NCBI GenBank assembly: GCA_017461665.1
Contig: JAFTXI010000046.1
Span: 3,419 to 67,418, forward strand
Direction of reading: 5' to 3'
DNA length: 64,000 nucleotides
DNA from: Bacteroidales bacterium
GTDB lineage: Bacteria; Bacteroidota; Bacteroidia; Bacteroidales; F082
In this document: positions 8,735 through 64,000 of the stretch, one piece after another
Layout of the letters: the number at the start of each line of letters is the position of its first letter
How positions within the stretch are numbered: the stretch's first letter is position 1
Notes under the pieces: model-generated
What the model saw: only the letters and a program-made list of their open reading frames with translations
Database searches by the model: none
What the model was told of the DNA's origin: nothing
Program-made: the position numbers and the translations under genes

Positions 8735-10017
8735 TATCCGTATTTCTCTTTCCATTTGTTTCTTAATGAGCTTCTCATCTCACGTTCGCGAGGATTATCT
8801 TGAGGATCATAGAATTTTGTTCCTGAGATTTCTTGAGGGAGAAACTCTTGTTCGACGAAGTTTCCTTCGTAACTATGTGCATATTTGTATCCGTCGCTAT
8901 AACCGATGTCTTTCATTAGTTTGGTTGGAGCATTACGCAGATGCATTGGCACGCTGAGGTTACCTGTCTTTCTCACAACTTCCTGAGCATCGTTTATCGC
9001 CATATAAGAAGCGTTACTCTTAGGTGATGAGGCGAGATAAATGGCAGTCTGAGAAAGAATTATCCTACTTTCCGGAAATCCTATCTTATTCACAGCATCG
9101 AAGCAAGTATTGGCAAGAAGTAAAGCGTTAGGATTAGCATTTCCAATATCTTCTGAGGCGAGTATCAGCATACGACGCGCTATGAAGAGAGGGTCTTCGC
9201 CAGCTTCTATCATACGAGCCAAATAATAAACAGCAGCGTTGGGGTCAGAGCCACGCATCGACTTGATAAAAGCAGAGATAATGTCGTAGTGCATCTCTCC
9301 TAACCTATCATAATTCAATAGATTACTCTGAATATATTGTGTAGTGATGTCATTAGTTATTATCAATTCTTCCTTATTAGGATTAGCCTCGTCGAGCATT
9401 CCAACGACTAAATCTATCGCGTTAAGAAGTTTACGGGCATCGCCTCCACTGATGTGCATAAGTGCCTCTTTCTCTTTGAGAACTATCTTCTTACCACAGT
9501 CTTTCTCTAAGATAGGAATGGCGTTGTCTAACAATCTATCTAAATCTTTTTTCTCTAATGACTTAAGGACATAGACCTGACATCTTGAAAGCAATGGTGA
9601 GATGACTTCAAAACTCGGGTTTTCGGTGGTCGCACCTATTAATATTACTAGACCTTTTTCAACGGCGTTGAGCAGAGAATCTTGCTGCGACTTGCTAAAA
9701 CGATGAATTTCATCAATGAAGAGAATCGGCGTGTCGGGAGCCATACGCGCTCTGTCGAAAACTTCCCTTACGTCTTTGACACCACTGCTTATAGCACTCA
9801 GTACATAAAACTGGCGTTTTACCTGTTTGGAAATGATAGACGCAAGAGTCGTCTTTCCCACACCTGGAGGTCCCCAAAAAATCATGGAGTGGACTCTCCC
9901 ACTCTCAATGGCTCTTCTTAGCACAGCATTTTCCCCGACAAGATGTTCCTGCCCGATATATTGGTCCAAAGATGTAGGACGCAAACGTTCCGCCAAAGGC
10001 ACCGATTGAAATTTCAT
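8731..10017 (-). CDS. rarA: replication-associated recombination protein A (AAA ATPase RarA/MgsA)
   Basis: Walker A GPPGVGKTT, Walker B ILFIDEIHR, and a MgsA C-terminal domain. The ATG at 10017 (MKFQSVPLAERLRP) is preferred over 10056, which would overlap the upstream gene. Confidence 0.9.
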   Translation of the reverse strand: MKFQSVPLAERLRPTSLDQYIGQEHLVGENAVLRRAIESGRVHSMIFWGPPGVGKTTLASIISKQVKRQFYVLSAISSGVKDVREVFDRARMAPDTPILFIDEIHRFSKSQQDSLLNAVEKGLVILIGATTENPSFEVISPLLSRCQVYVLKSLEKKDLDRLLDNAIPILEKDCGKKIVLKEKEALMHISGGDARKLLNAIDLVVGMLDEANPNKEELIITNDITTQYIQSNLLNYDRLGEMHYDIISAFIKSMRGSDPNAAVYYLARMIEAGEDPLFIARRMLILASEDIGNANPNALLLANTCFDAVNKIGFPESRIILSQTAIYLASSPKSNASYMAINDAQEVVRKTGNLSVPMHLRNAPTKLMKDIGYSDGYKYAHSYEGNFVEQEFLPQEISGTKFYDPQDNPREREMRSSLRNKWKEKYGY

Positions 10018-10045
10018 TTTATCGATTTTTATATAAATAATGTTG

Positions 10046-11752
10046 TTAACGTACAAGAATAGTCGAAAATTCTTTTATATTGCCAACCATATCAGTAATA
10101 ATGATTTTTATATTATTACGTCCTGCTTTTATATGATTGTCAATTTGATAAATAAGCAATTTATTCTTTGCATCATAATCTGCAAGAACCCATTCTTCAT
10201 TGACATACATCTCATATTTCATAATGCCACTTCCCTCGTCGTCAATCTCAACTCTCAATGACCAATTGTCAGCAATGGAAGAATTACTCTTGAAGTTGAT
10301 TGGTTTTATTGTTGGTGCAACTGAATCTTTTGCAATAAAATACGTGCTTAAAACATTCGTCTTGGCTTCAAGATAATTATCAACGATTTTGTTTCCTAAA
10401 AAGATACAATCTCCTTTTTTGTTTCTATATGCGACATACAAAGAACTATCACCGATATACTCTTCTTTTGGCATCAAACGAACAGTAATTCTTTTATGCA
10501 ATGGTATTTCCTCGTTTCCAAGTTGATACGCAAAATTTGAAAAAATATCTTTTATAGTGTCTATCTGTGACGCCCTGATTGCAACATCTTTGTAGAACGA
10601 ATATTCGGGAATTATACATTCAAAGCCATCTAAATAAATCTCAGAGGATTCGCCATCGTAGATGCGATAATATGATCGTGGCAAACTTGGTTTCTCTTCA
10701 AATTCTGGCAAATTGCTACCAATAAGAGTGAAACGTAAAACTGATTTATTGTTGTTATAATCTTTAACTACATACTTCATTTTCAGAGTGTCACCTTCAT
10801 TAACTCTAATGACGCCATCTCTTTTTTCATAAAGTTTAAGTTCATTAAACTCGTCAACTTCTGTTCTGATAAAACGTTCATTTTCTTTGATATAATGAGA
10901 ATAGTCAATCAAACTGTTGATATATCGAGTCTCATCGTAGGAATATTTGTCAGAGATGATTTTAAATAGGAGTTTATCATCAGCGTATAGTTCGATACTA
11001 TAAACTCCGTTCTTGTTGTAAGAGCCATTAGCCTGATCGTATGTATTAATTCCAAAAGCAATATCTCCATTGGCAGCAAATACCGATTTCTCCAAAAAAT
11101 ACTTGTTATCTCTATTGAGAACTTTTACGTAAATAGCTGAATCACCATTATTTATAGCAGAATTTTCAAGAGGATAAATTGCCAATCCTTTTATCTGAGG
11201 TTTGATGTCGTCCTTAATTTTTAATCCAAAATATAAAGGATTTACAGGTTCCTGAGTTTTAGTATAACGTATTTCATAGTGAAGATGTGGACCACCGGAA
11301 CTGCCACTGTCGCCTGTAAGTCCGAGATAATCACCTTTCTTTATGGGAAATTGATTTTTCTCCAAAATTATATTTTGAGCAAAGGATTTATCTTCATACT
11401 GTTTAGACTTAACAAAATCATTGATTTTTTTATTGAACTTGGAAAGATGAGCATAGACAGACGTAAATCCATCATTATGTGTGATATAAATCACTTTTCC
11501 ATAACCGAAAGGTGAAACTCCTATCCTACTGACGTAGCCATCGGCAACAGCAAAAACCTCCTTACCTTCAACGCCTTGAGTTTTGATATCAACACCAGCA
11601 TGAAAGGCGTTGCTACGAAGTTCGGCAAATGTGGCTGACAAATATACCGGAATTTTCACAGGATTGGGATATTGTGAAAAATTACTATTCTGTGAAAACG
11701 TAACAATATTTATTAACAATAATAATATCAATAATTTATATCTCATATTCAA
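10046..11752 (-). CDS. M23 family metallopeptidase with a long C-terminal extension
   Basis: Signal peptide. HxxxD (HAGVDIK) and HxH (PHLHYEIR) LytM-type zinc motifs. Confidence 0.85.
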   Translation of the reverse strand: MNMRYKLLILLLLINIVTFSQNSNFSQYPNPVKIPVYLSATFAELRSNAFHAGVDIKTQGVEGKEVFAVADGYVSRIGVSPFGYGKVIYITHNDGFTSVYAHLSKFNKKINDFVKSKQYEDKSFAQNIILEKNQFPIKKGDYLGLTGDSGSSGGPHLHYEIRYTKTQEPVNPLYFGLKIKDDIKPQIKGLAIYPLENSAINNGDSAIYVKVLNRDNKYFLEKSVFAANGDIAFGINTYDQANGSYNKNGVYSIELYADDKLLFKIISDKYSYDETRYINSLIDYSHYIKENERFIRTEVDEFNELKLYEKRDGVIRVNEGDTLKMKYVVKDYNNNKSVLRFTLIGSNLPEFEEKPSLPRSYYRIYDGESSEIYLDGFECIIPEYSFYKDVAIRASQIDTIKDIFSNFAYQLGNEEIPLHKRITVRLMPKEEYIGDSSLYVAYRNKKGDCIFLGNKIVDNYLEAKTNVLSTYFIAKDSVAPTIKPINFKSNSSIADNWSLRVEIDDEGSGIMKYEMYVNEEWVLADYDAKNKLLIYQIDNHIKAGRNNIKIIITDMVGNIKEFSTILVR

Positions 11753-51772: not shown

Positions 51773-51807
51773 GGTTTAGAGGGAGTTAAAGGGAGAAAGG
51801 GACAGAG

Positions 51808-51828
51808 GAATTGAAAGTTGAAAATTGA
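51808..51828. repeat. 21-bp inverted-repeat arm (left): gaattgaaagttgaaaattga
   Basis: 20/21 match to the reverse complement of 53977-53997. Confidence 0.8.
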
Positions 51829-51907
51829 AAATGGAGAATTGACTTTAGGACTCTGACCCTCTCACCATTTATGCCTTTAATTATGCATTATGAATTGAAT
51901 TACAACT

Positions 51908-51962
51908 TCGAACCTGACACGACTGTGATACGACTGTGACAGGAAGGAGACTCCTACGAATT
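51908..51962. repeat. 55-bp direct-repeat copy 1 (tcgaacctgacacgactgtgatacgactgtgacaggaaggagactcctacgaatt)
   Basis: Identical to 53785-53850 except that copy 2 has one extra 11-bp unit (gatacgactgt). Confidence 0.9.
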
Positions 51963-53593
51963 ATTGATTTTCCAATAACCTCCTTTGTTGGGACCAACAT
52001 GTTCTATTACGGGATTTAGTTTTTCAATATCACGACGAATTGTTTTTTCATTTACCTTTAATTTTTCTGACATTTCATCGATTGTTATTTGAGGATCAGC
52101 AGTTATTAGTTCCACTATCTTAAGATGTCTCTTATATTCTTTGTTCTTCAATTTTTTTATTGGTATATAATCTAAACAAACATCTAACTCATCTGATTCT
52201 AAACCTTTCATATCATTTTCTGAGGACATTTTCTGATTTGTCAGGACATTTTCATCACTTTCTGTGGACATTTTCGGGTTTGTCAGGACATTTTCATCAC
52301 TTTCTGTGGACATTTTCGGATTTGTCAGGACATTTTCGAATTTGTTAGGACATTTTCATCATTTTCTGAGGACATTTTTATATATGTTATCGAAAAAATA
52401 AAGTGAGAACCATTAAGAATTTCCACTTTATAATCTGGTTGATATAATGGAGCATAGCGTAATATATTTCTCGACCCCGACCCCATATCTTCAACCCATG
52501 ATAATTCATGAAAAACCTTAACCAATAATGGATTCTTTGTATAATTATTAAGTTGTTCTAATTTCAAATTTCCTTCTGGAATTTCAGGAAGTAATCTACT
52601 TGGATTTTTAGTCAAAACCCTATCTTTAAACACATGAAAAAAACAGGCATAACCACTACTAAAATCGCTATGGACACACATATTGGCTATTATCTCACGA
52701 AATAGATTCCATCTTAAATCTATTCGTCTTGTTGTCCCGATTGGAAGATAAAACTTATCTGGCAAATATCTTTCTGTAAATTGGGATAATTCATTATATA
52801 CATTGATAAGATTGCAGCGTAATGTACGACGATCATCATAACGATTTGACAATGACGACATATCAGTGTATTGTTTATATGTACACATGTGAAATACGGC
52901 TTCAAACCTATATCGTGGCAAAAATTCTTGTATTGAAGATTCTTTTCCAAATAGAATAAGTGCTGCATATTTTATTTTAAGTTCCTTAGTAATCTGGTCT
53001 CTTTTTGCAAGATGTAAATGTATTAATATCTCTTCATCAGATAGTTGCAGCCATGAATGGTTTGGTTTATTAACAGAAAGAATTTTACGACAAAATTGAA
53101 TGGTTTTATGATCTATATCATCAATATTTAAACCATCAACAAATCTTTCTTCAAACAAATGCGGATTCTTCCGTTCAAACAACGATAACAATAATTCCGG
53201 ATGGTCTGTTATGTCTAAATCTATTTCTCCGTTTCTGTCGAAGTATCTTCCGTTATATCTATAAACATATTGTCCACATGGTATGTGTAAAACCATTGCG
53301 ACCTTATCTTCTATTTCAACAATTTCGGGAGTAAGGTAAAGACTCGGTAAAAATAGATCCTTATTTTTCACAGTGCTAATAATATTATTTTTAAGTTCTT
53401 GTATTTTATCAGGATTTACACCTATGATTTTACCATTGTCATTTACCCCAATTAAAATGATTCCTCCGCTATGATTCAGAAAAGAGCAAACACTTTCATA
53501 CAGAGAATATGAAATCTGATCATAACATGTTTTGTACTCAATTTGAGAGTTCTCTCCCTCTTTTGATAATTTTATAAATTGTTTAGTTTCCAT
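51954..53593 (-). pseudogene. AlbA_2/Schlafen-type DNA-binding + HATPase_c_4 + C-terminal wHTH protein (often misannotated as RecG-like), split into 422-aa and 119-aa ORFs
   Basis: The N-terminal ORF has an AlbA_2-like start (SQIEYKTCYDQ...NHSGGIILIGVNDNGKIIGV). The C-terminal ORF has the wHTH (IVELITADPQITIDEMSEKLKVNEKTIRRDIEKL...GPNKGGYWKI). The break lies in a tandem repeat at 52330/52331. Confidence 0.7.
52209..52372. repeat. coding tandem repeat made of alternating 22-nt (A) and 20-nt (B) modules, giving a 42-nt / 14-aa unit (MSTESDENVLTNPK)
   Basis: Module order on the plus strand is A-B-A-B-A-B-B-A. The B-B junction at 52330/52331 shifts the reading frame. Confidence 0.9.
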
Positions 53594-53784
53594 TGGTTTA
53601 TGATTCTATAAAACTTCACTTACTCATCTCCACGCTGCAAAACTAAACCTATTGTTATTGATCTCCAAATATTTTTAGTTAATATTCATTAACATTCTCA
53701 ATATTTTACGATTTGAGTGTTTTTGTTAACATTTTTCCTTAAAAGTTTTTAACAAATGATTTAGTTAGAACAGGAATCTCTCAC

Positions 53785-53850
53785 TCGAACCTGACACGAC
53801 TGTGATACGACTGTGATACGACTGTGACAGGAAGGAGACTCCTACGAATT
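53785..53850. repeat. direct-repeat copy 2 (66 bp, with 3.5 rather than 2.5 copies of the 11-bp unit)
   Basis: See copy 1 at 51908-51962. Confidence 0.9.
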
Positions 53851-53976
53851 GACACTGATGGGCACGGATTGGTTTCTGCGTGATTTTAATTAGAAGTATC
53901 TCTCGCAAAGGCGCAAAGGAACGCAAAGTTTTAAATTCCAGATTAACAGTGTATTCAGCACAATCGGCATTAGTTG

Positions 53977-53997
53977 TCAATTGTCAACTTTCAATTC
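53977..53997. repeat. 21-bp inverted-repeat arm (right): tcaattgtcaactttcaattc
   Basis: Its reverse complement matches 51808-51828 at 20/21 positions. Confidence 0.8.
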
Positions 53998-54025
53998 ATC
54001 CAATTATGCACTATGAATTACTCTT

Positions 54026-54200
54026 GGGCGTTCCGGCGAAGCCGTCGGGCTTTCCGCTATATCTTTGCTCGCTCCCGTCTCCGCTCTCGGTCGTTGAGCT
54101 TGTCGAAACGCCGGTCACTTCGACAGGCTCAGTGACCTGTTCCCGCTCTCGCACCTATGGAAGCTCACAAAGGATGCCGCTCCAATCCCTAACGCAAAAC
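54026..54200. other. GC-rich structured intergenic element (candidate ncRNA or REP-like repeat)
   Basis: A sharp local GC rise inside AT-rich DNA. There is a 12-bp stem (54096-54107 with 54119-54130) and a competing 7-bp stem (54113-54119 with 54131-54137). Confidence 0.4.
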
Positions 54201-54574
54201 GCTGCTATAAAAGAAGTTACGATTTATAATTGTAGTGATTTTATTCATATAAAAAATTACTTATTGTTTGTTAGGCTATTTTTCAAAGCTATACCCTTTG
54301 CTGTAAGGCGGTATTTTTGTTTCTGGAGCAATCGTAGTCTTCAACTCTGTTTCTTATACGTCATCTCAGCTACTAAGTTGTAAAATTCTTATAAGCAAAT
54401 CTAAGCAGAGTAACGCAATTCAACGCAAAGAACGGCATTTAAAACCAAATCTAAAAAGATGGTTGATATTACGATTATTTTTGCCGTGAAAATTCATTGT
54501 TGAATTGACAATTAACGATTTAGCATTGGATTATTATAGTTCTACATTTATTAACAATTTTAAATTTATCTATT

Positions 54575-56323: not shown

Positions 56324-56616
56324 AATCCACGAATGTTTTTTAGTCCACGAATTGACACGAATTAACACTAATATTTGTCTCCACGGATCTTGGGAATCTG
56401 CACGGAGTTTTTTGGGTCCACGAATTGGCACGAATATTTTTCTCCACTGATCTCGGGTATCTCACAGATATTTTTAGTCCACGAATTGACACGAATTGGC
56501 ACGAATATTTTTCCCCACTGATCTCGGGTATCTCACAGATATTTTTAGTCCACGAATTGGCACGAATTAACACTAATAATTTTCTCCACGTATCTCGGGT
56601 ATCTCGCGGATATTTT
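56324..56616. repeat. tandem repeat of four units (72, 62, 71 and 70 bp) plus a partial leader copy
   Basis: The units start at 56341, 56414, 56476 and 56547. Each is (t)agtccacgaatt[g/a]rcac...ctccac.gatctcgggtatctcacagatattttt, with internal cacgaatt sub-repeats. Confidence 0.9.
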
Positions 56617-56681
56617 ATGTTCGTCAATAAAGTAAGTTGATGCAAACATGTGTAATATCTGCATCAACTTTATTGTGTAGT

Positions 56682-58730
56682 TTATTGTTTGATAATCAGT
56701 TTGGAGTTGATGTTGTCGATTGTTATTGTTCCGAATCTTTCAAGTACACTTTGACCGAGTAGAAGTGGTGCTTGTTGTTTGTCGATGACGGTGGCTTCGA
56801 CATTCTTCAAAATGGCATCTCCTATCTTGATTTCTCTTAATCGAATGGTTGTTCCTTCATGTATGTCGCCTGTTGCGGTGCTGTAATGTTGTTTTCCTTT
56901 TATGTCGTCGGAAGTTAAATATCCATTTTTGAGCATGAAGTTTGCCTCGACTGATGAGATTGTGACGATACTTGCTCCCGTGTCGAAGGTGAATTTCAGA
57001 GGGAGTCCATTCACGGAGCATTCTACCTCATAAACTCCACTGTACATTTTCTTCATCGGTATTTCCGAAATATTTGAGATTTCGTCTTGCTTATCATTAT
57101 CACCGTTGATAGTGGCGATTGGTTTGTCTTTATACTCTTTAATAAGGGCAATGAAATCAGGATGGTTTCTGATAGGATCCATATCGTCGTCATTTTCGAT
57201 ATGAGCGAAAGAGCGGTTGCCTTTTTCAAGAGATATACGTAATGCTGCAATGGCTTCGTCGGTCTTGCCCATTCTTGAGAACAGACATGCCTTGTCGTAG
57301 TATTGACCACTGTTTTCCGGATCATTTTCAATTACCTTATTCATCCATTCGATGGCTTCATCATCTCTACCCAAGAAGTGCAATGCGTATTGACGACAAC
57401 TTCCAGATTCTGCAACAGTATCTAACTTCAATATTTCTTCAAAATCGGCGTTTGCCAATTCTTTCATTCCTTGTTTGTTATAGAGTTCACCACGCATCAG
57501 AAATATGTATGGGTATTCTTTATCTACATCAATGCCGGCATTGTAGTTTTCCATTGCGGTTTTGTCGTCACCTTTGAGTTCGTAGCACCAGCCACGCATA
57601 TAATAAGCATACGCATACGTAGGGTAAACCTCTATCATTTGGGAGAAATCAACTATCGCCTCGTCATAACGGCCAGCTTCACGATAATAATTTGCTCTTT
57701 GGGATAATCCATAATAATCTTTTGCATTACCCATCTCAAGGTATTTGGTTATTTCAGCGACAGCATGGTCTGTATCACCTATTTCGCTATAACACATACT
57801 CTTGTAGTAGTAAATATCTGCGGATACTCCATATTCTTTCTCGATATTGTTATACTCTTCTATAGCCTTGACAAAATCGTACATCCATTCATATATGCTT
57901 GTGCGAAGCATTTTCCACATATAATTGTCATCATTATTGTTAATCATCTTGTTTACCTTGGCAAGGGAATAAGTGAGATGTTTTTTAAGGATGTATTCGT
58001 AATATACCGGATTTTCCGAATAATAGATATAAAGGATAGCATCGTCGATAGCTAAGTCCGTCTTGCCCATTTTATCGTATGCCTGCATTCTGAAGCTGTA
58101 TATAGCTTCGTATGTGTTGTCGTACTTTTCGCATTTATTGCACATTTCTATTGCTTTGTCATACTCGCCACGGTTAATCATATTGCGAGCCAATCCTATC
58201 ATAGCGACTTGATCGGTTTCATCATGTTTAAGCATGAGGTCATAGTCGGCATCTGCCTTTTCAACATCGCCCATATAATAAAAAATTTCAGCACGCTCAT
58301 ACAATACAGTATGAATAAGTTCTGTGTTCTTTTCCTTAAGTAGCATTTTGTATGTTATACTATAATCATCTATAGCCTTATCAAGTTCATTCAAATCAAC
58401 ATATACACGAGCCCTGGACCAATATAACGTAGATTTTTGGATATCTTCTTTTTTATTCCAATTCTTTATCGACATGTTAAGATCGGTAAGAGCAAAACCA
58501 TATTTATCCTGTAGATAGTATATATGAGCTCTTAGGAGATATGCCTCCGACAATTTAGGAGTTTCCTCTAATTGCATATTGACGTATTTTATTGAGCCAT
58601 CGAAATCATTCTGGTCAAAAAGTTCATACGCCTTACGCAAGTTATAATCAGATACTTGATTCTTTTGAGCATAGCACATCTGAAGACTCATGAAGATGGC
58701 TATAACGGCTATTAACAATGCTTTTTTCAT
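56682..58730 (-). CDS. secreted multi-TPR protein with a C-terminal retropepsin-like (clan AA) aspartic protease domain
   Basis: Signal peptide MKKALLIAVIAIFMSLQMCYA. About 500 aa of TPR-like A/Y/D repeats. The C-terminal 120 aa or so carry FTFDTGAS (DTG at 56976-56984) and the LLLGQSVLERF flap/dimer region. Confidence 0.8.
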   Translation of the reverse strand: MKKALLIAVIAIFMSLQMCYAQKNQVSDYNLRKAYELFDQNDFDGSIKYVNMQLEETPKLSEAYLLRAHIYYLQDKYGFALTDLNMSIKNWNKKEDIQKSTLYWSRARVYVDLNELDKAIDDYSITYKMLLKEKNTELIHTVLYERAEIFYYMGDVEKADADYDLMLKHDETDQVAMIGLARNMINRGEYDKAIEMCNKCEKYDNTYEAIYSFRMQAYDKMGKTDLAIDDAILYIYYSENPVYYEYILKKHLTYSLAKVNKMINNNDDNYMWKMLRTSIYEWMYDFVKAIEEYNNIEKEYGVSADIYYYKSMCYSEIGDTDHAVAEITKYLEMGNAKDYYGLSQRANYYREAGRYDEAIVDFSQMIEVYPTYAYAYYMRGWCYELKGDDKTAMENYNAGIDVDKEYPYIFLMRGELYNKQGMKELANADFEEILKLDTVAESGSCRQYALHFLGRDDEAIEWMNKVIENDPENSGQYYDKACLFSRMGKTDEAIAALRISLEKGNRSFAHIENDDDMDPIRNHPDFIALIKEYKDKPIATINGDNDKQDEISNISEIPMKKMYSGVYEVECSVNGLPLKFTFDTGASIVTISSVEANFMLKNGYLTSDDIKGKQHYSTATGDIHEGTTIRLREIKIGDAILKNVEATVIDKQQAPLLLGQSVLERFGTITIDNINSKLIIKQ

Positions 58731-58770
58731 AATTTTGTGTTATTTTAATTATTTCTATTTTATCAATTTC

Positions 58771-59547
58771 TCACATCACATCTTTGTCTATCATAAAATC
58801 AAAATCAACAGGTTTGTTTTTTGTATGATTATTCAACATATCAAGGGATGTATTAATTTGTTCGTCTAAATATTTGATAGTCCAATCCTTATTGTAATAT
58901 TTTTTGTAATATGGCATACTTTCAATACGTTGTTTGTAATTCGTTTTAAAATCTTCTGCTGTCTTTGTCAACGGAACAGTTCTATTTTCATCATTCTGTG
59001 CTTCTTTCAATATTGTTTGAAATTCCATATATGATTTTTCATACTCTTTGAGTAAAGTGTGTACAATTGAATGATTGCCTTGTGGTTTACCTGAATATAC
59101 TCTATCTAAATATTTTATTGCTTCATCCACATTCTCTTTGTCAAACTTCTCATACAAGCACCAACGATTCGCCCATCTACCCATCCATGTTTCAACAAAA
59201 GTCTTCTCATTCTCCAACTCTGTTTCCAATCTTTTTATTTCCTTATCTCGAGAAGCAATTTCATTTGTCAAAGAATCATTATTATGAATAAAACCACTTA
59301 TTTTAATGGAATCACTCTCTATATCTTCCACCAACGTAGCGATAAACTTAAAACAATCATTTGCAATACTATCTTTATACAGAATGATTTTATTCAATGA
59401 GTCTAAAATATATCCAATACTATCAGCATTATGTGCTTGCGTCTTTTTTGATATAATCTTGCTCAACACGCCCTTTTCATTCTGAGCATTTGCATCTATG
59501 TTTATAAAACACAATGCCACCAAAATAACATATATACATTTTTTCAT
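58771..59547 (-). CDS. secreted hypothetical protein with a central coiled coil
   Basis: Signal peptide ending DANAQNE. Helical, with an EIKRLETELENEK heptad segment. Part of the operon. Confidence 0.55.
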   Translation of the reverse strand: MKKCIYVILVALCFINIDANAQNEKGVLSKIISKKTQAHNADSIGYILDSLNKIILYKDSIANDCFKFIATLVEDIESDSIKISGFIHNNDSLTNEIASRDKEIKRLETELENEKTFVETWMGRWANRWCLYEKFDKENVDEAIKYLDRVYSGKPQGNHSIVHTLLKEYEKSYMEFQTILKEAQNDENRTVPLTKTAEDFKTNYKQRIESMPYYKKYYNKDWTIKYLDEQINTSLDMLNNHTKNKPVDFDFMIDKDVM

Positions 59548-59555
59548 ACTCTCAT

Positions 59556-60890
59556 TTATTTATATGGTATTAAAACGTAGCCTTTATCACTTCCTTTATT
59601 CTTTCTACCGTTTTTCTTATATACAACATATATTGTATATTTTCTATCTTTCTGTAAGTCTTTCAAGTTTACAAGCGTGTATGAACCAATAGATGTTCCA
59701 CTTCTTGGATTTCCTTTAGTCGTTGAATAATAATATTTTTCTGTTGGTTTTCCATCCACACCAACAAGCAGGTAATCTTTATCCGCTTCTCCATCACTTC
59801 TGACATAAAAACTAAAAGATTCATATCCTTTAATAGTAAAAGACATTGTTGCTGTTGAATTGCGTTGACCATAATTTGTTGATTGGTATGCTCTATACGA
59901 ATAACTTGGTGAAATCATGCTAATCCATTCACTATTATTAGTATTGATATTGATTTCCGGCTTAGGTTGTGGTTTGAATTTCTCCTGCTCCTCTTTCTCC
60001 TGCCTTGCTTTTTCTTCTTTTTCTTGTTTCGCTTTTTGTTTATAATAACTACCCGCCTCATCATAATATTTGCGAGCCTCATTACTTAATTCATCCGATG
60101 GCTGATAATTTACGTACATATTACATACCGCATCATATTCATCAATTAAATCACTTATAACTTTAAACAAATTGTAAAATGCAGACTCTTTCATTTGTTT
60201 ATAGTTTGCCAGTTTGTCAACTTTTGCAGCAACTTGATTATAATGCGATTCACCAATATTATTCTTTACCTTCGACAAATCATTAACAAGTTCTTGGCAA
60301 TTATTCAATGGTGCAATTGTCTTGTAATGTTCCGCATACATAATCTTTGTACCAGCATCTTTGGTTGAATAGAATTTCTTATACTTTGCAGTTTCACATG
60401 CATTGTTGTATAATTGAATTATGTTTTCGATTTCATTTAACGAATCATTAAATGATCCATTCACTGTATCTGTTTCTTCAAAAACAACTTTTAAAGTTCT
60501 AATATTGTTTATTCTATTAAGCATTGCCTTATGGTCTGACTTTCTCCAAACTGATGCTTTAAACTTATCATTACTATATTTTATAAATATCGGAAGATAG
60601 TTTTTAACCAATGCTTTTGTTTGAAAATCTATTTCTTCTTCTGTCACATATAACTCCGCCTTATACATTGCTAACTTATCAACAACAACTCTATATAGCG
60701 AATCATTGAACGCCTCACCCCTTTGTTCACAGAATGCATTTACACCAGATTCCAACGATTGTTGATGAAGATTTACAGTTGGTACAGATGTTGGCGGAGC
60801 AACAATTGTTGGCAAATACAAAAGGATACTTGCAGTAACCGCAATCACCAACGTAACAAGGGCTATTATTTTTATTGGAATATTTTTCAT
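59556..60890 (-). CDS. N-terminally membrane-anchored hypothetical protein with a K/E-rich linker and a beta-rich C-terminal domain
   Basis: TM helix IIALVTLVIAVTASILLYL. A helical region of about 270 aa, then the linker KQKAKQEKEEKARQEKEEQEKFKPQPKPE, then a 125-aa Y/S/T-rich strand domain. ATGA overlap with the upstream gene. Confidence 0.55.
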   Translation of the reverse strand: MKNIPIKIIALVTLVIAVTASILLYLPTIVAPPTSVPTVNLHQQSLESGVNAFCEQRGEAFNDSLYRVVVDKLAMYKAELYVTEEEIDFQTKALVKNYLPIFIKYSNDKFKASVWRKSDHKAMLNRINNIRTLKVVFEETDTVNGSFNDSLNEIENIIQLYNNACETAKYKKFYSTKDAGTKIMYAEHYKTIAPLNNCQELVNDLSKVKNNIGESHYNQVAAKVDKLANYKQMKESAFYNLFKVISDLIDEYDAVCNMYVNYQPSDELSNEARKYYDEAGSYYKQKAKQEKEEKARQEKEEQEKFKPQPKPEININTNNSEWISMISPSYSYRAYQSTNYGQRNSTATMSFTIKGYESFSFYVRSDGEADKDYLLVGVDGKPTEKYYYSTTKGNPRSGTSIGSYTLVNLKDLQKDRKYTIYVVYKKNGRKNKGSDKGYVLIPYK

Positions 60891-62722
60891 ACGTAACTTT
60901 CTGCATTATTTGTTTCTGTTGTTTTTTTCTCATCTTTATTCTCCTTCACTTTGTTTTCTTTCTTTGGCTCGGGAGATGAGGCGTTATCAAGTGCTTCTAT
61001 ATATTTTTTAATGGTGATGTTTAAATCTGAATCTTTAGTAATATATTTCCCCAATCCTGTTTTGTACCTATTATTTTCAACACATTTAAATATTTTTAAG
61101 AATTGATGGGAAGCACTAAGTTCGTCACGATATTTTAATATATCATCAAATCTTCTTTCATTCATAGCATCCCACAGACCTTTTGTTTCTGGATATTTTT
61201 CCATTTCATTACGATTCCACTTTTCATTATTGTCGAGATAATCAATAACAGACACTTCTGGTTTCGTAGCAGATGATGGATTAGATGTTACATCATTGCT
61301 ATTATGATTCGAATTTACATTTGGTTTATTTTTCAAGTCATTTTTCAAATCCGATATTTCCTTTTCTTTATTTTCCAACACCTTCTTCAGAGTCAACAAT
61401 TCCTTTTTCAAAGATGTTATCTCTGTATTATTATTCTTTGTGTCTGATTTAGAAAAATAAGATTTCACGAACCACCCAGCACATCCACCAACACATAATG
61501 ACAATAAAACGAGTATCAACAATATCATTATATGTTTTTTGGTAAAAGGTTTATAGACTAATTGATTATCATAATCAGGATATACCTTTCCATTTGTAGT
61601 TTTATATCCTTCTATCGGACTCTCACACAAGTCTTTTTCTGTTTCAAATTCTATTTTTTTATATTTTGTTATATGAGTGATAATAAACCTATATGTTTTT
61701 TTTATCTTTTCAAGCTTAACTTCACAACTATTTCTTAAATCCTTATTAGCGCGATGTTGTTCATAACCATTGACTGATACTATAACCTCAACATTAGAAA
61801 TAGATTCCTCAACTATTTCAGCGTTTTGATTCGGTAAAATAGTCTCCTTGTTTATCATCAATGTATATTGATCTATTCTATTGCCTTTTTTATCTTTTAC
61901 AACAATTGAATTATATGGCACTAATATTCTATACTCATTCTGAGTTGGTAGATTTAACACCACATCACAGTTTGATATTTGGGTTATTTTTTCAATGGTT
62001 TTATATCCATCTCGTTTCCAAGACACATTCAATATTGTATTAAAATTTTTCTTTATTGATTTTTCGAATGGTTTATCTCCGATGTAAGGTTTAAATCCAT
62101 TACATGTTTTAGGAGGATTTATTATAGCACTACCAACAAAATCTTTTTCTGTTAAATCATCACATGTTTCACATTCAATATTTGAACTTTTATCTATAAG
62201 AAACACAAACTTGTATGAAGAATAACACGGTTGATCGAGATTATCTAGTAGTTCATGAAGTTGATAATATTCTCCATAGAATCTATAAGCAACCTTGTTT
62301 GATGATACTTCCAATGATGACTGTTGTATATCTACAACATCACAGATAGTTTCTGAAAATATCTTTTCTAATTTAGTTTTTGAAGTATCCTTGTTCCAAT
62401 TCAATAATTCTGTTTTCGTAATATCAATGATTTTAGCAAGTTCCTTTCCTGATATAACTATATTCCAAGGAACAAAAATAGATGCACACATATAATCATT
62501 GCGTCCTGCATTGGCGCAATAAATTCTAATTATATGTCCGCAATCTATCTTTTGCAAAAGCAGAAAATCCCAACTCTGATTATCAGGCTTTTTTAATTGT
62601 TTTATTTCCGCAATCTCACCAATATGCTTAGCCCATTTTATATTCGAGTTGTATGACATAAGTGAATTGCTACCCTGATATGTGTATTCAATTTCTACTC
62701 CTAATATGTTATTTCTATCCAT
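60887..62722 (-). CDS. bitopic hypothetical protein (about 395-aa Cys-containing N-domain, one TM helix, a coiled coil, a helical C-domain)
   Basis: TM helix IMILLILVLLSLCVGGCAGWFV. Coiled coil TSLKKELLTLKKVLENKEKEISDLKNDLK. No recognisable family. Confidence 0.55.
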   Translation of the reverse strand: MDRNNILGVEIEYTYQGSNSLMSYNSNIKWAKHIGEIAEIKQLKKPDNQSWDFLLLQKIDCGHIIRIYCANAGRNDYMCASIFVPWNIVISGKELAKIIDITKTELLNWNKDTSKTKLEKIFSETICDVVDIQQSSLEVSSNKVAYRFYGEYYQLHELLDNLDQPCYSSYKFVFLIDKSSNIECETCDDLTEKDFVGSAIINPPKTCNGFKPYIGDKPFEKSIKKNFNTILNVSWKRDGYKTIEKITQISNCDVVLNLPTQNEYRILVPYNSIVVKDKKGNRIDQYTLMINKETILPNQNAEIVEESISNVEVIVSVNGYEQHRANKDLRNSCEVKLEKIKKTYRFIITHITKYKKIEFETEKDLCESPIEGYKTTNGKVYPDYDNQLVYKPFTKKHIMILLILVLLSLCVGGCAGWFVKSYFSKSDTKNNNTEITSLKKELLTLKKVLENKEKEISDLKNDLKNKPNVNSNHNSNDVTSNPSSATKPEVSVIDYLDNNEKWNRNEMEKYPETKGLWDAMNERRFDDILKYRDELSASHQFLKIFKCVENNRYKTGLGKYITKDSDLNITIKKYIEALDNASSPEPKKENKVKENKDEKKTTETNNAESYV

Positions 62723-62726
62723 AAAT

Positions 62727-64000
62727 TTATGATCTGAATTTATTTATTAATTTCGATAATTTTCCTGGTTTATATCCAAAAGATCTTTTCAAAATTGTCT
62801 CTACAACTTTAGAAGCTGGTTCTGCATGAAATCTAAAATAGGATTGAAAACATACATCACCTAATGTAAATGGATGTATATCAACTTTACCGTCATTAAT
62901 TTCCTTATCATAACAAAGTCTTTTAAGGTTACCAAGGAATCCGTCATATTTAGAACTGATATAGTTTTCCAATTTATCTCTCAATTCTTCCCCTGTAGCA
63001 TTTGCCTTGTCTACTTTTGTAACAAGAATATATACCGCATCTGTATCTTTTTCAAAAATACCAGTCTCTATTATATATGCCAAAGCTGAGTTAAGATATG
63101 TTTTCTGTGGCACTCCTCTATATTTTCTATCTTCTGCGCCATATTCAATTACGAAGAAATGAATCTTTCGATTAGATGTTCTGTTGTCAATCAAAATCCT
63201 ATTTAAAGTTTGGAGCACTTCATATACATTTGACTTAAGAGAACCTTTTCCTTTTGATTGCAACTTATGCATATCACAAAACACTTCACCAGCAATATCA
63301 ATACAAGTTATAGGATGTATCAAACCCTTTTTGTCTTGTAATTCAAATCCCATTTCATAAGTAGTTCTCAATGTTGCTTGTGTTCTTTCTGGAAGTGTTC
63401 CGACTTCATTGTCTAATCCAAACAAATCTGACAATTCATTCATATACCCAAAGCCTTGACATTTAGGGTCTTTCATCATACTTGATGCCACTTTGCCATT
63501 ATCTGCAGTACTAAGTATTGCACCTATTGCGCAACTTTTACCAGATGAAGGAATTCCCCAGAAATAAATTTCCGTACTAGGTACTTTTGTGATTTTTTTT
63601 AGTTCTGATGCTGCAGATAATTGTACTGGTGTAACACCAGACATCATGTGTTTAATAAAATCTTTTGCAATTCCCGTCTCTCTAAAATCAGTAATAATCC
63701 CATTGTACCATAACTTATATGCTACATTACCACTTATAAAGTTATTATCATTCTTAATAGTTTCCAATAAATCGTTAACTTTTATTTTTTTTGTATTAAT
63801 GTATTTAGAGATTTCTTTAAAGATAGCATCATCCTTTCGTGGTTCATCGGGATTTGCCATAATTGTATTAATTTGCTTTGCCAACGTAGACATATCAACT
63901 CCTAAATACTCTTCTTTCTGTAACTCACGAAGAATAGCCCATGCTTCTACTAAATGTTGACTTTCCGGATAATTCGCAATATAACCTCGTAATTGTTCCA
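62727..64000 (-). CDS. predicted P-loop GTPase (Ras/dynamin-like motif set), 5'-partial at the window edge
   Basis: G1 GIPSSGKS (63534-63557), G3 DIAGE (63285-63299), G4 TKVD (63009-63020). The frame stays open from the ATG at 63893 up to position 64000, so the true start may lie outside the window. Confidence 0.6.
   Translation of the reverse strand, partial: EQLRGYIANYPESQHLVEAWAILRELQKEEYLGVDMSTLAKQINTIMANPDEPRKDDAIFKEISKYINTKKIKVNDLLETIKNDNNFISGNVAYKLWYNGIITDFRETGIAKDFIKHMMSGVTPVQLSAASELKKITKVPSTEIYFWGIPSSGKSCAIGAILSTADNGKVASSMMKDPKCQGFGYMNELSDLFGLDNEVGTLPERTQATLRTTYEMGFELQDKKGLIHPITCIDIAGEVFCDMHKLQSKGKGSLKSNVYEVLQTLNRILIDNRTSNRKIHFFVIEYGAEDRKYRGVPQKTYLNSALAYIIETGIFEKDTDAVYILVTKVDKANATGEELRDKLENYISSKYDGFLGNLKRLCYDKEINDGKVDIHPFTLGDVCFQSYFRFHAEPASKVVETILKRSFGYKPGKLSKLINKFRS

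Follow-up and report, generated by a model that had tools for sequence, protein, structure and literature searches.

A nine-gene Bacteroidota operon joining SrfB and SrfC homologues to a predicted GTPase and putative trans-envelope proteins

Five genes in the window form the distal half of a nine-gene operon

The DNA analysed here (the window) is a stretch of 64,000 nucleotides (nt) from a Bacteroidales bacterium (assembly GCA_017461665.1, contig JAFTXI010000046.1, positions 3,419 to 67,418), at one end of which five co-directional genes are packed on the minus strand. In the order of transcription, they encode a predicted GTPase (62727-64000; the last 424 codons, the 5' end lying beyond the window), a 611-amino-acid (aa) protein, p611 (60887-62722, starting 4 nt past the GTPase stop), a 444-aa protein, p444 (59556-60890, sharing an ATGA overlap with p611), a 258-aa protein, p258 (58771-59547, after a gap of 8 nt), and a 682-aa aspartic protease with tetratricopeptide repeats (TPRs) (56682-58730, after a gap of 40 nt). 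These frames and junctions had all been given by the initial annotation of the window and are exact. The GTPase frame remains open to base 63998, with the listing of open reading frames (ORFs) alone giving 62727-63893+, and the complete protein has 545 aa, the full gene being present at locus L084, positions 10001-11638 (also at L001). A terminator-like hairpin with a 16-bp stem (56634-56670, minus strand; also inverted repeat I11), located 12 nt 3' of the last stop, probably marks the end of the operon. Inside the cluster, where internal terminators had been said to be absent, we found one weak minus-strand terminator-like site (60844-60830, 6-bp stem), and the number of such sites did not exceed that in shuffled sequence.

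The five genes had been proposed to be a self-contained system beginning at the GTPase; sequence beyond position 64000 moves that boundary. On a 136.9-kb metagenome scaffold (ENA ERZ28654584 scaffold_242; Bacteroidales metagenome-assembled genome, identified by an exact protein match), four more co-directional genes separated by gaps of 9-24 nt lie upstream of the GTPase gene. They encode SrfB (operon gene 1; 1015 aa, PF07520), SrfC, also termed Virul_Fac (gene 2; 936 aa, PF10139, a P-loop NTPase), an S8 peptidase (gene 3; 1014 aa, with one transmembrane helix followed by the S8 domain) and p332 (gene 4; 332 aa, about four transmembrane helices). The operon comprises nine genes headed by SrfB and SrfC, and the five in the window are its distal half. 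Of the initial annotation as a whole, the predicted topology, the coupling of the genes and the lack of family assignments held, while the boundaries of the system and the place of the protease as a core part did not.

Gene order is conserved across Bacteroidota

Conservation was assessed in 80 loci, with one genome per species, chosen from 117 confirmed matches that a search with two peptide patterns only had returned among 185,579 species genomes. The 80 syntenic loci lie in Bacteroidales and Marinilabiliales (Bacteroidia) and span Prevotella, Bacteroides, Alistipes, Muribaculaceae, Paludibacteraceae, Marinilabiliaceae and others. Six cultured strains are included (Bacteroides stercorirosoris DSM 26884, B. 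muris NM69_E16B, Xylanibacter ruminicola KHT3, Prevotella lacticifex JCM 34664, Phocaeicola paurosaccharolyticus JCM 15092 and Prevotellamassilia timonensis), which makes the function of the operon directly open to genetics. The order SrfB-SrfC-S8-p332-GTPase-p611-p444(-p258) was recovered by tblastn and iterated profiles in nearly every locus with enough flanking sequence, with p258 detected by profile in 52 loci. Conservation of the neighbours, on which the initial annotation had beforehand staked its proposal, is thus broad, the same order and strand recurring in about 70 species-level genomes from several families.

The genes are also closely spaced, as expected of the tight, coupled unit that had been claimed. 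Median gaps between consecutive genes range from 2 to 17 nt, with 5 nt between S8 and p332 and 17 nt between p332 and the GTPase gene. The p611 gene comes after the GTPase gene in 78 of 82 loci; the gap is at most 20 nt in 68 of 80 pairs, and in 38 of the 80 the two genes overlap, so that the GTPase is probably translationally coupled with p611. The arrangement is maintained down to about 35% protein identity. Together with the start/stop overlaps and with an order and strand common to about 70 species of several families, this leaves a chance adjacency of unrelated genes without a shared function effectively refuted.

Sequence divergence increases along the operon from SrfB towards the p258 end, as seen in comparison with B. 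stercorirosoris, where identity is 66% for SrfB, 58% for SrfC, 42% for S8 and 38% for p332 in the 5' part, and 45% for the GTPase, 22% for p611, 29% for p444 and 27% for p258 in the 3' part. A distant copy lies outside these orders, in Runella (Cytophagia), on the 93-kb plasmid pSP2_1 of Runella sp. SP2 (L086; NZ_CP031031.1, 59391-78604). This plasmid keeps SrfB-SrfC-S8-p332-GTPase (p332 homologue E = 4.5e-49; GTPase homologue of 401 aa) and then encodes a bitopic protein of 784 aa whose alignment with the p611 profile is weak (E = 9e-4 over 304 columns). Its later genes, which encode secreted or N-anchored proteins of matching topology, have no detectable homology to p444 or p258.

In three divergent loci of Prevotellaceae type (L067, L068 and L057), genes for a Zn-ribbon/SH3_3 protein and a YkuD L,D-transpeptidase lie just upstream of SrfB, and the protein in the S8 position is shorter (575-634 aa); in L068, Pfam recognises only B-repeat domains in it and no peptidase. 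Both p332 and p444 are undetectable in L067 and L068, and L057 shows only a short p444 fragment.

The two halves of the operon are not always found together. At L052, L053, L069, L080 and L081, the downstream module occurs, in part or in full, without SrfB, SrfC or S8 in the 8-10 kb upstream. L069 and L081 hold only the first genes of the module, and p332 is undetectable in L069. The Srf-less block of L053 (8665-14837) adjoins MutL and sigma-54 genes, and that of L080 (7909-14941) adjoins genes for endonuclease III, a BatA/von Willebrand factor A (vWA) protein and an ABC transporter; a rhomboid gene is also among the housekeeping-type genes upstream of these two modules. In L080, the p332-GTPase-p611-p444-p258 block is followed by an FtsK/SpoIIIE-type ATPase gene. 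Such loci raise the alternative that p332-GTPase-p611-p444-p258 is an autonomous membrane GTPase module that often adjoins SrfB/SrfC/S8 without a joint function, and profile-profile alignment with hhalign, which shows no homology between the two halves, points the same way. We nevertheless consider this unlikely, given that the halves are contiguous in about 90% of the loci with enough flank, with the median gaps of 5 and 17 nt noted above, and that the distant Runella plasmid keeps the combined arrangement. A single operon with joint function, as developed below, is the reading that we prefer.

The GTPase represents a family without a name

The sequence of the 545-aa protein identifies it as a probable cytoplasmic P-loop GTPase of a family that has no name, for which GTP binding and hydrolysis are predicted. 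As the initial annotation had noted, the motifs G1 (GxxxxGK[ST]), G3 (DxxG) and G4 ([NT]KxD) occur in the right order, and they are retained in orthologues, with the fold model in agreement. On the minus strand, the G1 or Walker A motif GIPSSGKS lies at 63534-63557 (78/78 primary orthologues), the G3 motif DIAGE at 63285-63299 (78/78) and the G4 motif TKVD at 63009-63020 (71/78), and all three are invariant in alignment A1. The first 250 aa are helical with weak TPR/BamD-like repeats, and the G domain is C-terminal. The AlphaFold2 (AF2) model of the GTPase (predicted local distance difference test score, pLDDT, 80) has a TRAFAC-class fold, Foldseek matching it with a probability of 1.0 to EF-Tu, YcjX, SRbeta, Galpha and Rab (EF-Tu E = 3e-5).

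No assignment was obtained for the G domain in Pfam, NCBIfam or the PDB sequences, the best NCBIfam match being YsxC at E = 0.098, and a profile search of the PDB gave only a weak BamD-like match to the N-terminal part and none to the G domain. The family is large, with more than 1000 relatives annotated as hypothetical proteins without any Pfam domain; among 1.84 billion representative proteins, its profile matched 374 clusters (defined at 50% identity) at E ≤ 1e-30 and 1842 clusters at E ≤ 1e-10.

Of the structures matched, YcjX, a stress-induced GTPase, aligned with the GTPase model over the greatest length (384 columns, E = 9e-5). YcjX pairs with the membrane partner YcjF, and next to the operon GTPase, too, lies the gene of a multi-pass membrane protein of similar size (about 330-350 aa). 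The TM-scores, however, reach only 0.27-0.33, the two systems differ in gene order and in their further partners, and as to membership of the YcjX and YcjF families, the GTPase had no Pfam match at E ≤ 0.1 and p332 has none on record.

Two kinds of GTPase-related gene accompany the operon elsewhere. In about one third of loci, a paralogue (about 450-520 aa) is encoded downstream; it has lost G1, G3 and G4 and is thus a pseudo-GTPase (L014 15084-16601, L024 15118-16647, L033 15004-16518 and about 22 other loci); the operon in the window has none. Many loci also carry, between p332 and the GTPase gene, a gene for a protein of about 230-260 aa in which a short piece resembling the GTPase N-terminus is joined to a DUF805 membrane domain (L014 9286-9969; L091 19708-20487).

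Bitopic and periplasmic partners are predicted downstream of the GTPase

The initial annotation had proposed a chain of proteins running from cytoplasm to periplasm, and topology prediction agreed, giving one transmembrane helix in p611, an N-terminal anchor in p444 and signal peptides in p258 and the TPR-protease. The p611 protein is accordingly predicted to be a bitopic inner-membrane protein. Its N-terminal alpha/beta domain (aa 1-190; 62153-62722, minus strand as for all features of these genes) is predicted to be cytoplasmic and is followed by beta-sandwich domains (aa 198-390; 61553-62131) that resemble transthyretin-like, CarboxypepD_reg and InlB B-repeat folds, by the transmembrane helix (aa 398-416; 61475-61531) and by a predicted periplasmic part (60983-61435) with a coiled coil (aa 430-463) and a small helical domain (aa 490-580). 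This helical domain is conserved and carries YLD...W.R.EME...GLWDA. Two beta-sandwich domains are present in the AF2 model of p611, whose pLDDT is 78 overall and about 90 over aa 150-340.

The N-terminal domain of p611 may belong with the longin-like domains. Longin domains have the element order beta-beta-alpha-beta-beta-beta-alpha-alpha, and the AF2 model of p611, which is confident in its N-terminal part, gave strands at 8-14 and 18-24, a helix at 28-42, strands at 52-59, 62-70 and 77-85, and helices at 92-107 and 111-123, which tentatively matches this order. The best Foldseek matches of this domain were weak but shared a theme, being to DENND1A/B, solved with Rab35 (E = 0.016-0.024, probability 0.93-0.94), and to the Lst4 longin domain (E = 0.043, target TM-score 0.43), with GATOR1 and FLCN also listed; for p611, a search of viral structures matched nothing beyond generic Ig-like and baseplate beta domains. 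TRAFAC-fold GTPases adjoining a longin-like-domain protein, as predicted here, are reminiscent of the GTPase/longin-roadblock pairs SRbeta-SRX, Rab35-DENND1 and Rag-Lst4/FLCN/GATOR1, and MglA-MglB is a bacterial pair of a small GTPase with a roadblock protein. In the putative pairing here, by contrast, the similarity to such pairs is weak in structure and absent in sequence, p611 is bitopic with beta-sandwich and periplasmic parts, and the operon GTPase has 545 aa with a TPR/BamD-like N-terminal extension.

The p444 protein is predicted to be an N-anchored (type II) membrane protein with a transmembrane helix at aa 8-26. Its conserved core comprises aa 1-285, and the beta-rich C-terminal domain (aa 310-444; 59559-59963), which the initial annotation had described as the distal domain of the protein, is an addition confined to the close clade; the topology that it had given stands. 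The p258 protein begins with a predicted signal-peptide-like N-terminus (59485-59547) and would be a fast-evolving secreted protein of helical or coiled-coil type.

As claimed at the outset, these proteins belong to no named family. Scans of Pfam, NCBIfam, PADLOC and PHROGs were empty for p611, p444 and p258; p332 had no match in NCBIfam, PADLOC or PHROGs, and none in Pfam by the precomputed record only. For p611, p444 and the p444 C-terminal domain, PDB sequence/profile searches gave no match either. Across all nine operon proteins, the four family scans recognised only the TPR/aspartic-protease, SrfB, SrfC and S8 domains. Hidden paralogy among the operon proteins (GTPase/SrfC, or p611/S8 N-terminal region) was considered and rejected, as an all-against-all hhalign comparison found none.

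A variable tail gene encodes the TPR-aspartic protease

The last protein of the window operon combines a predicted signal peptide (58668-58730), a region of roughly ten TPRs found by domain scan (57126-58667) and a retropepsin-like protease domain of clan AA (56712-57062), as had been claimed. This domain scored above the cut-offs of three family hidden Markov models (PF13975, 61.6 bits against 28.2; PF13650, 48.8 against 24.3; TIGR02281, 58.2 against 57.95), and the catalytic motif DTGA, following the pattern D-[TS]-G-A, lies at aa 583-586 (56973-56984). With bacterial retropepsin-like proteases of clan AA, as covered by these three models, the protein shares the C-terminal domain and the DTGA motif, and it differs from them in being fused to a signal peptide and about ten TPRs and encoded by an optional tail gene.

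The same gene stands at the operon tail in 13 other loci, in 12 of them at full length and in one cut by the contig end. DTGA is present in all 13 full-length proteins, that of the window included, and signal peptides in all copies. Co-occurrence with the GTPase, which had been suggested as a check, was therefore observed, although among the 43 loci with at least 6 kb of flank downstream of p444 only 10 carry this tail. Of the cultured strains, B. muris NM69_E16B and X. ruminicola KHT3 have it. Elsewhere the position is taken by split M48 peptidase genes, Sel1-repeat proteins, a WD40 protein, BACON/TPR and FN3/Lcl_C proteins and, in one locus, an FtsK/SpoIIIE-type ATPase. The protease, once placed at the endpoint of the chain, is one of several tails, a variable gene of the operon and not part of its core.

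SrfB, SrfC and the S8 protein relate the operon to srfABC

SrfB, the 1015-aa product of the first gene, matches PF07520 by the precomputed record (E = 7e-207 for the L068 orthologue) and carries the motif DIGAGTSD, which we take to be typical of actin/Hsp70-like ATPases. SrfC (PF10139) adjoins it at the operon head, and PDB sequence/profile searches gave nothing real for either protein. In the S8 protein, the subtilase motifs VVDDGID, HGTHVAG and GTSMAAP can be read in the sequence. Its best NCBIfam match is mycosin (TIGR03921, E = 7e-41), at 140 bits against a curated cut-off of 279. Like mycosin (MycP) of type VII secretion, it would be a membrane-anchored subtilisin with the S8 domain outside the cytoplasm, but its transmembrane helix precedes the protease domain, after a cytoplasmic region of 418 aa, and no other type VII secretion component accompanies it bar the FtsK/SpoIIIE-like tail in one locus.

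The closest named relative by gene content is srfABC of Salmonella, Xenorhabdus and other Proteobacteria, which likewise has adjacent SrfB and SrfC and, in SrfA, a protein described as having the topology that is predicted for the operon's bitopic protein, with a large cytoplasmic N-domain and a periplasmic C-domain. The differences are that the operon lacks a SrfA homologue, that its bitopic partners come after SrfC and not before SrfB, that it has five to seven additional conserved genes including a second GTPase, and that its hosts are Bacteroidota. The SrfA family NF040486 matched none of the nine operon proteins, the Rahnella SrfA control scoring 4e-167. The idea that p611 is a divergent SrfA was rejected, since hhalign aligned the two over the transmembrane helix only and p611 has no NF040486 match. 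In the literature, we found srfABC described in Gamma-, Alpha- and Betaproteobacteria and no account of a Bacteroidota operon or of the GTPase module; the published description of the conjugative transposon of rheumatoid-arthritis-associated Prevotella copri mentions no Srf proteins. Judged by these comparisons, what appears new here is an SrfB/SrfC-type system in Bacteroidota with a GTPase family for which Pfam holds no model.

With SrfB and SrfC homologues heading the operon, it could also be a Bacteroidota version of the SrfABC "tripartite toxin", that is, an exported cytotoxic complex acting on eukaryotic host cells or competitors (for example, through outer-membrane vesicles), for which the five window genes would be export and processing accessories. 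SrfABC of Xenorhabdus expressed in E. coli has been reported to be cytotoxic and insecticidal (PMC6950479), and a preprint makes the case that membrane-anchored SrfA is exported by way of vesicles (10.64898/2026.09.18.752743). Against such a toxin speak the lack of a SrfA homologue, with p611 sharing only a transmembrane helix with SrfA, the carriers, which are gut and rumen commensals, and the toxin role of SrfABC itself, which is unsettled in the literature; we give this explanation little credence.

The operon behaves as mobile cargo

The accessory, mobile context that the initial annotation had suggested was borne out in relatives, where the operon adjoins CTnDOT-type tra genes and an integrase. 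In L088 (1-9667), which represents close relatives (SrfB 87% identical), it starts 333 nt after a tyrosine integrase gene, which itself follows a full CTnDOT-type transfer region (traG, traJ, traM, traN, traO and traQ) and a lysozyme gene. SrfB is always operon gene 1, and the genes upstream of it vary or sit on the opposite strand: in other lineages, they encode a resolvase and a DUF3871 protein, HxsD, radical-SAM and LRR proteins, an AbiEii toxin with an M48 peptidase on the opposite strand, or Zn-ribbon/SH3 and YkuD proteins. Because these upstream neighbours differ among lineages, the operon behaves as mobile cargo with SrfB as its first gene. On the Runella plasmid, the operon comes immediately after a complete set of BREX-1 genes.

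In the window, positions 1-51.8 kb are ordinary chromosome, with genes for NAPRTase, TrkH, AcrB, GcvP, BipA, DcuB, a fucosidase and AraC regulators, and 52-64 kb has a lower GC content, falling to 0.30-0.32 across the operon. The region from 52 to 64 kb also holds an AlbA_2/HATPase_c_4 gene, small HTH genes, a DUF6266 gene and an HTH_17 gene. A phage module was considered and rejected, there being only 2 matches in 2.9 million viral contigs. The search for plasmid carriage by tblastn with the GTPase found none, the Runella plasmid copy having been found only through SrfB.

That most components are predicted to be membrane or periplasmic proteins, with two proteases among them, would also fit a housekeeping-type envelope function and not conflict, such as surface-protein processing, remodelling of the peptidoglycan or outer membrane, or vesicle biogenesis. 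The YkuD L,D-transpeptidase and SH3 protein upstream of SrfB in some divergent loci and the placement of the stand-alone modules among housekeeping genes would suit this explanation. It sits poorly, however, with the patchy distribution (the 117 confirmed matches, under the two-pattern search), with mobile-element carriage, low GC and a variable tail, and with the fast divergence of the periplasmic parts, p611 being 22-30% identical where SrfB is about 65%, and we regard it as decidedly improbable.

A trans-envelope NTPase-protease system is proposed

We favour the reading that the locus is a nine-gene mobile operon for a trans-envelope NTPase-protease system, in which a GTPase switch acts through p611 and whose role lies in envelope surveillance or conflict, and we put its probability at about 50%. 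From predicted topologies, SrfB, SrfC, the GTPase and the N-terminal domains of S8 and p611 would be cytoplasmic, and the S8 protease domain, a p332 loop, the C-terminal part of p611, p444, p258 and the tail protein would lie outside the inner membrane. The GTPase would serve as a cytoplasmic nucleotide switch and might dock on the longin-like domain of p611 as in SRbeta-SRX or Rab35-DENND1; p611, with p332 and p444, would then pass the state of the GTPase across the inner membrane to periplasmic partners, namely p258 and an output or recognition protein that differs by lineage. In the window, this output protein would be the TPR-guided retropepsin-like protease, and elsewhere a Sel1, WD40, M48 or other protein, so that specificity would come from the interchangeable repeat/protease tail. 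The SrfB/SrfC/S8 module would add NTPase power and a second periplasmic protease. Given the predicted longin-like domain of p611, a relay from the GTPase to the protease across the membrane becomes somewhat more plausible.

We infer that the role is most likely envelope surveillance or conflict, in the sense of defence, exclusion or competition that benefits the host of the element. Such a role is favoured by mobile carriage, the patchy distribution, the diversification of the tail, the fast-evolving periplasmic parts and the BREX and AbiEii neighbours.

Several observations weigh against this proposal. The Srf-less loci described above suggest that the SrfB/SrfC/S8 half and the p332-to-p258 half may be separable machines. 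The likeness of p611 to longin/DENN domains is weak (E = 0.016-0.04, TM-score 0.23-0.43), and PAS/LOV-like folds stand lower in the same Foldseek list. The membrane orientation of p611 is deduced from the absence of a signal peptide, with no clear positive-inside bias. The five window proteins, SrfB, SrfC and p332 match no defence model in PADLOC-DB 2.0, the S8 protein matches only generic subtilase/IetS models there, and no classical effector (nuclease, NADase or pore-former) was found in the operon.

A bolder version, which we hold only tentatively and consider doubtful, is that the operon encodes an undescribed Bacteroidota trans-envelope machine with three unrelated NTPases (the ASKHA-like SrfB, SrfC and the new GTPase family), bitopic membrane adaptors, one of them with a longin-like domain for GTPase docking, and exchangeable periplasmic proteases or repeat proteins as outputs, spread among gut and rumen Bacteroidales by CTnDOT-type conjugative elements and serving as a new kind of envelope-level defence, exclusion or competition. 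If true, it would give the first mechanistic handle on SrfB and SrfC, widespread proteins labelled "virulence factors" whose mechanism has been unsettled since they were first named in Salmonella. In Bacteroidota, SrfB and SrfC are tied to a second conserved module, made up of the new GTPase family and four orphan partner families, and the presence of the operon on conjugative elements of gut and rumen Bacteroidales makes it a candidate fitness, defence or competition determinant moving between strains.

Other features of the low-GC region

No RNA family match was found by Rfam in the 50-64 kb part of the window, and a tRNA scan of the whole window found none. The interval of about 1 kb at 53600-54560 contains only implausible ORFs (53765-53980, minus strand, and 53880-54383, plus strand) and no Rfam match. 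Directly downstream of the terminator hairpin, a 71-nt unit stands four times in tandem at 56356-56631, with copies 63-100% identical to the reference one; the unit is non-coding and without an Rfam match, and related pieces of 33-35 nt occur at 56328-56362 and 53844-53876.

Direct repeats of 48 nt (98% identical; 51915-51962 and 53792-53850) and 27-nt inverted arms (51805-51831 and 53974-54000) bracket a cassette of about 1.9 kb that holds the AlbA_2/HATPase_c_4 gene (52325-53593) and a 119-aa HTH gene (51954-52313), and whose layout suggests a small insertion or duplication at the border of the low-GC island. Within it, repeats with a period of 20-22 nt (42 nt) extend across the junction of the HTH and AlbA_2 genes (52217-52378), so that 'MSTESDENVLTN'-like peptides recur where one of the two proteins starts and where the other ends.

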